Under the pieces are notes generated by a model. It was not told where the DNA came from, ran no database searches, and was given only the letters and a program-made list of their open reading frames with translations. The position numbers were made by a program, and so were the translations under genes. This document shows positions 32,801 through 35,800 of a stretch of 51,695 bases of DNA, piece by piece; the stretch's first letter is position 1, and every line of letters begins with the position of its first letter. Location of the stretch: positions 1-51,695 of the forward strand of contig MQRK01173782.1 in assembly GCA_001938485.1 (NCBI GenBank). The letters are read 5' to 3'. The DNA is from Girardia tigrina. Its lineage: Eukaryota.

Positions 32801-35800
32801 TAATTAGATTATGACTTGCATTTTCCAACATAAATCTAGCAGTTGCAACTATTGTGAGATCTTTATAAGTTCATACTTTACATTAATATTTTTAAATATA
32901 AAACTTTACCTATCTCACTATGTATACATAAATAAAACCATTATTAAACTTATTAATGTGTTAAATAATGAAAATTATGTGTTTTATTTCACTATAACTA
33001 TGTTTATGATTGAAAAAATAATTTTACAAAGGGTCGCGACGATATTTAATACACTTTGAAAAGTCCAGCATCAAGATAGTTTTTACACTGCTGTTTTAAA
33101 CATTAAAATATATTTGGGTGGCATTGAAACATAATATTTCTTTATTTAAGTATTTTTATTATTAATTAATACATTTATTTATATTTGTTTATAATTGTAA
33201 ACTTATTTCTAAATTTTTGCAACATAAGTTTTGGTTCTTAAATGAAATTTTATTTATCAATAATTTTGTATCCAAATTTATTCAAGTAGTAATGCGGAAA
33301 AAACTGGCCCAATCATTCTAAGTTTTCATGGACTTGGAATTTCCGTAAATAATAATGCCCTACTCATAATTGGGTGAACAAATTCTTCGCTCAAAAGCAA
33401 GCCGATTTTTTTCAAAAATCGAATTTGAAAACTATCAGAACGTTGGTAGGATATTAAAAATATTGTTGCAAAACGATTTGGGAACAACAGAGATTTTTTA
33501 CTAGGAGGTAGACCCTACCTACCGGGTTATGTATCCAATTACCTTATTTGCTTTTTTTGCATTAATATTTTTTCATTATTTAATGTTTATATTTGATAAA
33601 GTTTCAATAATTTGATTGAAATTAGAAATTTTTAAATTATTATTTAATTTGACAAATAATGATTAATTGAACATCATGATCAGGTAATTTTATTGCTTAA
33701 TTTGTAAGAACTTCAGTGTAAATAATAAAAAAATTTATTCTATACACAGCATTATGGAGAATAAAACTCAGAATAACAAATTTTTCGAAGCCTTTAAGCA
33801 AGCTTATATACATTTTTCGTTGGGGTCAGAGAGGTTTTCAAGGCTTGTTACAAGGGATGGGGATTCAAAAAATCATTTATTTCTGTTATATAATATCCCT
33901 TACTGTATAATTGTTTTGGGTTTTATTAAATAAAATGTTTGAAAAACGCTCACGTCTATACATCAACCTAAATGTTTTATATTGATTTAATTACCTATAA
34001 AGATTCGTTTAATAAAATAAGATTTTTTAAACATCCATTTTTTGAAAATTAATTTGAGATTTAAATGCGATAAGTCTCTGTGTTTATCTTATCAGAGAAT
34101 GTTAATTAATTCCGAAATATACATATTGATCGTGCACGAGAGTGGTTTTTTATTAAATTTTTATAAAAATTTTTGTTACTGAAAAGTTAAAAAAATTATT
34201 TAAAACCCCCTTAAAACTGATTTGGATTTTCTAATTCAGGTGTAAAAATGTCAAGACCTAATGATAAAGCAATTTATATTTAATAATCAAAATGGTATAA
34301 TATTTTTTTATGATTTTAACCTCTAAATCTTTTAAAACATTGTTGATCGGTTACGAGTTAACTCATTGTTCCGTCCGACCCTCAGGTTGCCCCGAGAATC
34401 GAACGGAGGTAGCCTCATTGCACAGCGGTTGATGGTTCTCACTATTGTGCTGGGTCGATTGATGAAATTTTAGAAGAATTTGAAAATCTACAGAGAACTT
34501 TAATTTAAATTCACCATAAATGAGTGCCATTGAGAGGGTAATGGAGATGCTAAACACAAACTTGCCATAAAGCCTGCACTGTCAAATAATGGATTCAATT
34601 CGATATCTACTTTGATCGAATCTGCAGAAGAATGTGTGACATGACCAACTGGCAATCAGGAGACAAATAGTGATATCATATATCGTGTCGGCGCTGATTG
34701 ACGTCGTAAGATTATAAAGCACTGGACATAGGATCAAATTTGAATTTGGAATCACAAATTATCTATGTTTCGATCAATCAAAATTATCATAAGGCGAGCT
34801 CCGGAAATGATCACTAATAGAGCGAGTGCCAAGTGCGACACAAGAACAATGATGCGACTCCTCGCAATATAAGTAAATCCAAATATTGATATCAAGCAAA
34901 ACTGATGATGAAACTATCCGACCTCAATAACCGTCTCAACCAGTTTGTACTATTTCACATACAAATTCCTTTTCACATTAATCAACAATTTCGAGTCGAC
35001 AAATTTATCGGATACATCCGACCGGCAACCATAAAACACTTCTCGAAAATTTTAACATAAATTTCGCACTAAAAAACGATCAACAATAATAAGTCAATTC
35101 TTCGATATATTTATTTCATTTTTAATTTGAAATTTGTTTATCTGAAAAAAAGCTGAAAAAAATACTTGGAGGTCGTTTGAAATTTGAAAAATAAATGTAT
35201 TTAAGGTACCTAAAAGATTCCAGATTTTTTCTTTTCAACTTTCCACAATTTTTTACATATTAGGAATGCATTTTTTATTTATTATTTATATCAACAAAAG
35301 AAAGAAAACAAATAAAAAAATCACAAATTGTCATTCTTAGTTGATGCGAGAGAGAAAGAGAGATTGATGAATGAGTCTTTTGATATAAATATCGATAATA
35401 ATAATGATATATATAATAATCTTTGAATCCCAAACACTAATGTTTTCATACACAAACGCTTTTCAACGACTATGAGTTAACTCGTGTTTGCACTTGCATT
35501 AGCTATTTCAATTTATGAAACTAAGGTCAATATATAAAACTGTAAAAGCTTTTTTTATCGTGTTTAAACGTGTTTCCCTTCCACATTGAATTACGAAATA
35601 ATAACTGGTGACATGCGATAGATTCAGTATAAAATTGCCGGTCACGACGTGTTAAAATTATCCTAAAGACCGCTTCTTAGTTTCAAGAAGAATTAATGGT
35701 TTCCCAGAATTGGTTTCATGATATTCACATTGTTCCATTTTTCTTTTAATGTCAATAACGTATTATTATAAAAATTATTATTAATTTTGTTAGAATTAGG

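Follow-up and report, generated by a model that had tools for sequence, protein, structure and literature searches.

A hairpin module of Girardia tigrina as the U5 end of BEL/Pao LTRs, likely a PBS-covering switch opened by multi-site pairing with initiator tRNA-Met

The window analyzed here, a stretch of 51,695 nucleotides of Girardia tigrina DNA (contig MQRK01173782.1), carries repeated copies of a short module in which a hairpin is followed by ACA, raising the question of what kind of element the module belongs to and what its hairpin does. The initial annotation had placed the module at 1190-1291 (+), 6763-6847 (-) and 34367-34461 (-), with an internally deleted copy at 6278-6322, and all of these sites were borne out in the window (below, copies 1, 2, 3 and 4, respectively). 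Folding agreed with the hairpin described for copy 3, i.e. 17 pairs, four of them G-U, closed by a GCAA loop, and separated it from shuffles with z values of -4.15 on the minus and -2.11 on the plus strand. The module is present in copies 1 and 2 too, but their own folds are no better than shuffles (z -0.40 and -0.76). The module recurs in the genome far beyond chance: across 1.43 Gb, the pattern of the hairpin 3' arm gave 1191 exact matches compared with 3 for a reversed control, and the GCCCAGCAC box (box A) gave 909 compared with 0 for its control. Two partial boxes had also been assigned to the module. The one at 4825-4837 (11 of 13 letters) is probably a chance match, because it opens a transposase-like frame of 223 codons, and that at 11006-11018 has a 49-bp match to LTR body upstream and is probably part of a truncated LTR. 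The transposase-like frame itself (4824-5495, +) had no match in a Pfam scan, and its nearest Atlas clusters carry MULE in 11-12% of members.

Homology between copies was said to stop at ACA, and it does so, ACA being the terminus of an LTR; the unit, however, is not one of 85-100 bp but the end of LTRs of 0.4-1.3 kb. Sequence common to copy 3 and its 30 best relatives extends up to 1.07 kb upstream of the hairpin; downstream there is none, duplicated contigs excepted. Copy 2 represents a second family with an LTR of about 0.83 kb; the interiors of the two families differ and both ends are common to them. The LTR termini of the relatives read TGTT...AACA. A search for target-site duplications, covering the 23 copies that have both ends and leaving out those flanked by a PPT or a PBS, found 5-bp flanks that were identical in 8 and had at most one mismatch in 13, compared with 2 and 17, respectively, of 506 cross-pair controls; in the same 23 copies, 4-bp flanks were identical in 1 and 6-bp flanks in 0. 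The LTRs of the window are as follows.

34367-35436, minus strand: solo LTR (copy 3) of 1070 bp with BEL/Pao-type ends, both common to relatives of 0.9-1.1 kb
34362-34366, minus strand: 3' target-site duplication of copy 3 (5-bp flanks agree at 4 of 5 positions)
35437-35441, minus strand: 5' target-site duplication of copy 3 (the same agreement, 4 of 5)
6763-7591, minus strand: solo LTR (copy 2) of 829 bp, of a family separate from that of copy 3 (5-bp flanks agree at 3 of 5 positions)
1190-1291, plus strand: U5 end of a decayed LTR (copy 1), far end not found
6278-6530, minus strand: LTR remnant (copy 4), hairpin mostly deleted, body aligned at 72-82% with L439, L440, L425 and L418
10732-11018, plus strand: probably what remains of an LTR truncated behind box A (11006-11018, 12 of 13 letters)

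The window holds other features as well. Exons with a kinase-like domain lie at 6000-6120 and 27109-27471 (+), which we take to resemble a receptor guanylyl cyclase; copies 2 and 4 sit just behind the first of them. A Penelope-like remnant with a GIY-YIG domain occupies 18450-19316 (+), and broken frames at 38810-41096 (+) and 42913-43800 (-) are, judging by their motifs, presumably a Gypsy gag-pol and a mariner transposase. A perfect 425-bp inverted repeat without spacer (14828-15677) is either an assembly artefact or a foldback element, and a near-identical 382-bp duplication across a stretch of N (1-705) is probably an assembly artefact. A second conserved motif, preceded by a TA-rich tract, is present in 14 of 40 LTRs at roughly 40-120 nt past the 5' end of the LTR (in the window, for example, at 7500-7515, -); perhaps it is the transcription start site. 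In L038 this motif includes 9 nt complementary to the PBS.

A G-rich (polypurine) tract (PPT) adjoins the far end of the LTR in 149 overlapping matches and the hairpin end in 3; therefore, the hairpin lies at the U5 end and the strand bearing the G-U pairs is the sense (RNA) strand. Examining 18 stretches upstream of G-rich tracts, we found a 5' LTR with the hairpin and then a PBS in 5. The two LTRs of L118 are identical at 436 of 443 aligned bases and their 5-bp flanks are identical, with PBS and PPT present, and paired copies of a repeat that enclose an internal region bearing PBS and PPT were found in L118, L120 and L124, which speaks at the level of the clade. For the window's own two families, 0 PBS junctions were found in the genome. 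The first 213 bp of copy 2 align at 75% with the PPT-flanked LTR of L114, and the link of copy 3 to the clade consists of its two ends and its target duplication only. Within the relatives, Pfam identified DUF1759, Peptidase_A17, rve, Integrase_H2C2 and DUF5641, the BEL/Pao set, with a DUF1759 gag, Peptidase_A17, an integrase after RT/RNase H, and DUF5641; every frame seen in them is broken. A ubiquitin domain near the start of the first frame was observed in the BEL/Pao elements L118, L378, L385, L387 and L389 (Pfam E 1e-6 to 1e-23), and a literature search on such a domain in the first frame of BEL/Pao elements found nothing. Among the other PBS-bearing families, DUF1759 or Peptidase_A17 was detected in 6 of 16 frames and RVT_1 alone in one; those with a diagnostic Pfam match are BEL/Pao.

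We are thus nearly certain that the module in copies 2 and 3 represents the 3' (U5) end of a solo LTR left by a BEL/Pao retrotransposon. Among the identities first offered for the module, the U5 end of an LTR proved to be right, with TGTT...AACA ends, 5-bp target duplications, PPT, PBS and BEL/Pao domains in relatives, and coding BEL/Pao elements exist in the genome as partners; an unclassified non-autonomous element is not what these solo LTRs are. TGT...ACA ends and a terminal hairpin would also suit a small structured ncRNA family, the end of a Ginger-like DNA transposon or a rolling-circle terminator, readings to which we give almost no weight: the partners are retroelements with PPT, PBS, paired LTRs and BEL/Pao domains, comparison with Rfam gave no match over the module, and for the clade such readings are refuted. 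Candidate readings as an HDV-like ribozyme or an H/ACA RNA were dropped because ACA is the LTR end. All hairpin, box and LTR evidence comes from one genome. Related U5 ends are present in contigs of four public runs, and L118 is represented in part in 8 of the 12 runs listed. A metagenome scan for box plus PBS found 0 relatives in other species, a looser one returned 120 stretches that look like chance bacterial matches, and no relative was found in the viral contigs searched.

The initial annotation had noticed neither the PBS nor a primer-tRNA link nor the true extent of the module. In the hairpin clade the PBS lies 2-4 nt past the LTR end and is complementary to the genome's own initiator tRNA-Met, represented by the tRNA-Met(CAT) genes of L132. 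A pattern built from box and PBS found 3 loci; ARAGORN called 3 tRNA-Met(CAT) genes in L132 and none in L130 or L131. We take the L132 cloverleaf to be the initiator from its CAT anticodon, A1:U72 and three G-C pairs in the anticodon stem. Exact PBS matches in the genome number 458. An early PBS search, for TGG within 6 nt of one hairpin variant, had given 23 matches whose downstream sequence was not in common. With a 13th match set aside as spurious, the 12 genuine hairpin-clade junctions have a perfect PBS in 3 cases, a 2-nt insertion in 7 and substitutions in 2. The common insertion was observed in L116, L118, L120, L122, L335, L438 and L448, and L423 of the same family is perfect. This hints at a PBS that sometimes escapes renewal from the tRNA, as has been reported for Ty1 and Ty3. 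We also observed a tandem array of 341-bp units (L150:7-1194; 3.5 copies) with a tRNAi-Met PBS in each, possibly a miniature LTR element in tandem.

The U5 end is ordered as box A, a variable spacer, box B, box C, the hairpin, ACA, 2-4 nt and the PBS. Judged by its sequence, box A is a 13-nt complement of the anticodon arm of initiator tRNA-Met, a point that is new here; it matches the tRNA from the D-stem 3' strand through the anticodon, box B matches the D arm, and box C matches the acceptor 5' strand and is complementary to the start of the PBS as well. In the window these parts lie as follows.

34370-34407, minus strand: copy 3 U5 hairpin, 17-bp with GCAA loop, 3 nt from the LTR end, supported by folding
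34408-34415, minus strand: copy 3 box C, a complement both of tRNAi nt 1-8 and of the first bases of the PBS, of which the family of copy 3 keeps only 6 nt
34420-34428, minus strand: copy 3 box B, which fits nt 10-18 of tRNAi (D arm) by complementarity and could pair with the 3' part of the PBS too
34447-34459, minus strand: copy 3 box A, agreeing at 10 of 13 letters with the complement of tRNAi from the 3' strand of the D stem into the anticodon arm, up to and including the CAU anticodon
6766-6803, minus strand: copy 2 hairpin
6833-6845, minus strand: copy 2 box A, exact
1190-1202, plus strand: copy 1 box A
1251-1288, plus strand: copy 1 hairpin
6308-6320, minus strand: copy 4 box A, exact

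In 32 non-redundant, diverged LTR ends chosen solely by the 3' arm of the hairpin, box A matched at least 10 of 13 letters in 26, compared with 9 of 1600 shuffles. Its conservation stops at both edges, and the spacers beside it (12-40 nt; 6 of 45 automatic calls were dropped as spurious) change in length and sequence. A candidate role of box A as the gag start codon was rejected, as ATG is missing from several copies and in one copy the frame does not match that of the ORF downstream. The box has a palindromic core of 8 nt, which would let genomic RNAs kiss, making box A a dimerization signal and its tRNA match secondary. The core GGGCCC is common to all variants, one cluster keeps just 8-10 nt around it, and palindromes have been proposed for Ty1 dimers (accessible part of PMC4974528); against this, the non-palindromic tail is kept, follows the tRNA and is as conserved as the core (positions 10-12 in 25, 21 and 24 of 26), and we regard dimerization as a very unlikely main role. 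Facing tRNA A37, 17 of 26 ends have A and 6 have T; facing G9, A occurs in 23 of 32 and C in 6 of 32. Human tRNAi-Met bears m1G9 and t6A37, and m1G9 blocks pairing (accessible part of PMC7293042). The fit of the box edges to G9 and A37 as putatively modified bases of the host tRNA is suggestive only, because the modifications are known from human and A is common in an AT-rich genome.

Complementarity outside the PBS extends beyond the hairpin clade. Among 38 PBS junctions of all families sampled with enough flank, 13 carried an exact complement of at least 10 nt to tRNA nt 1-40 on the sense strand, compared with 0 on the antisense strand and 3 of 760 shuffles; the 13 sit in 2 of 8 loose clusters and therefore are not independent. 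Other BEL families have box A 219-418 nt downstream of the PBS, and one further family has a 13-nt exact complement of the D arm 15 nt upstream of the PBS that does not fit the PBS. When upstream U5 was paired with tRNA nt 1-40, the duplex scored better than every one of 200 shuffles at 10 of 12 junctions. Multi-site pairing with the tRNA is therefore, in our judgment, probable. A different origin of the boxes would be capture of a reverse-transcribed primer into an ancestral LTR, leaving a fossil beside an intramolecular fold (hairpin and anti-PBS stem) that alone matters. Boxes A, B and C are indeed colinear with the reverse complement of the tRNA, and B and C fit the PBS as well and can be read as plain anti-PBS. 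Yet box A is kept although the adjoining spacers vary in length and sequence, it recurs across the PBS in other families, and the 13-nt D-arm complement just mentioned does not match the PBS, all of which makes capture unlikely as the full explanation.

Turning to the hairpin in the clade, a GNRA loop is present in 98 of 108 copies that are in register, and pairing was kept in 6 of 9 stem changes at the family level; two hairpin types differ at five central pairs, all of which pair in both. The G-U strand bias inferred from the window comes mostly from the four inherited pairs; decay within families is symmetric (36 G-U and 30 A-C). Covariation, proposed at the outset as a check, was seen in 49 ends selected by the hairpin (91.6% of cells paired; score reached by 2 of 500 shuffles) and not in 24 ends chosen through box A alone (a 25th was set aside because its register was shifted), where 84.8% were paired, 98 of 500 shuffles reached the score and RNAalifold kept just 8 inner pairs. 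Given that covariation falls to shuffle level without selection on the hairpin, the stem rests on one-sided, G-U-tolerant change more than on true covariation, and two-sided covariation of the stem is weak. The sense strand was more stable in 43 of 43 cases, a set selected on sense folding, hence this lends no support. Weak covariation, and a position at the LTR end like that of the proposed Sirevirus integrase signal (accessible part of PMC2829016), would be expected of a DNA-level end signal, such as an integrase attachment or subterminal site or a transcription or polyadenylation element, homogenized among families by recombination. Common U5 ends could indeed spread by recombination between families, but a DNA signal leaves the tRNA complementarity, the downstream box A of other families and the pair-preserving G-U changes unexplained, and we consider it hardly likely.

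Beneath the hairpin, a stem between box C and the PBS appeared in the best fold of 10 of 12 junctions. In crude energy sums for four junctions, which leave out junction costs and tRNA modifications, the free locked RNA was favoured over binding at the PBS only, and binding at PBS plus boxes was favoured over both. Together, we propose, with a probability of about 0.7, that the module is a BEL/Pao U5 end acting as a PBS-covering switch that is opened by multi-site pairing with tRNAi-Met. As predicted by folding, box C and part of box B would pair with the PBS, bridged by the 17-bp hairpin. Initiator tRNA-Met would open the locked PBS by pairing at several sites, with its 3' end on the PBS and its acceptor 5' strand, D arm and anticodon arm putatively on boxes C, B and A, respectively, and Gag would probably assist. 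Such pairing would select, package and position the primer. Reverse transcription would then begin a few bases before the hairpin, placing this stem some 5 nt in front of the end of the primer, a position like that of the U5 stem of retroviruses. The window copies are inert fossils of this U5 signal. More tentatively, and at slightly less than even odds, the whole tRNAi-Met-primed BEL/Pao branch may initiate by a lock-and-toehold switch in which the greater part of the primer tRNA is unfolded. Its parts would be an anti-PBS stem that a GNRA hairpin closes and a 13-nt anticodon-arm box, portable in that it works from U5 or from 0.2-0.4 kb downstream, with edges set by m1G9 and t6A37.

The window copies are ordinary solo LTRs, and the priming strategy is of a known type in a new form. 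A stem just upstream of the PBS is familiar from the retroviral U5-IR stem and from Tf1, and retroviral U5-primer contacts span 4-8 nt, shorter than here. Retroviruses thus resemble these elements in having such a stem and in U5 pairing with the primer beyond its 3' end, as for the HIV-1 contacts of the A-rich loop with the anticodon and of the PAS, and for Rous sarcoma virus, some of which are disputed (accessible part of PMC3185550); they use other primer tRNAs, and that part of PMC3185550 holds no 13-nt anticodon-arm box shifting across the PBS between families. The primer is the same in Ty1 and Ty3, where extra segments that pair with tRNA arms aid primer packaging and initiation (accessible parts of PMC5371799, PMC4974528 and PMC3592414); complementarity outside the PBS is conserved across families here too. 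As described in those parts, however, their PBS is short, their boxes target the T and D arms from 3' of the PBS or the RNA 3' end, and the tRNA 5' end is free, whereas here the PBS is about 18 nt and boxes in U5 or the leader target the acceptor 5' strand, D arm and anticodon arm. Ty5 and Drosophila copia are primed by a half-tRNA through the anticodon arm of tRNAi-Met, so that anticodon-arm pairing is the PBS itself at the LTR edge (accessible part of PMC5371799); our elements have a normal 3'-end PBS, and their box A is found either some 90 nt within the LTR or 0.2-0.4 kb downstream. LTR-end motifs of Sireviruses have been interpreted as integrase signals (accessible part of PMC2829016).

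The ICTV profile of the Belpaoviridae lists LTRs of 0.2-1.2 kb, an 18-nt PBS, a PPT of ~10 nt, the order gag-PR-RT-RH-IN and metazoan hosts (PMC8742986), and these elements agree in LTR size, PBS and PPT length, gene order and metazoan host. It names tRNA-Arg or tRNA-Gly only as primers, in contrast to the tRNAi-Met, extra boxes and hairpin found here, a list that is descriptive and not a taxonomic criterion, and it calls replication poorly understood (PMC8742986). The words 'primer' and 'tRNA' are absent from the accessible part of a BEL/Pao survey (PMC3118150), as are 'tRNA' and 'PBS' from that of the Sinbad paper (PMC554778). Our literature search, with subscription journals, Repbase reports and supplements, which may hold PBS entries, outside its scope, found no paper on extended primer pairing in BEL/Pao. 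If true, the lock-and-toehold switch would give BEL/Pao its first described mechanism acting in cis at the start of reverse transcription, and multi-site primer pairing would be extended from Ty1, Ty3 and retroviruses to another order-level lineage. For this poorly understood replication it gives a precise and cheaply testable model of how one branch may select and open its primer site, as well as a sequence signature by which thousands of so far unlabelled solo LTRs of the genome can be oriented and classified.
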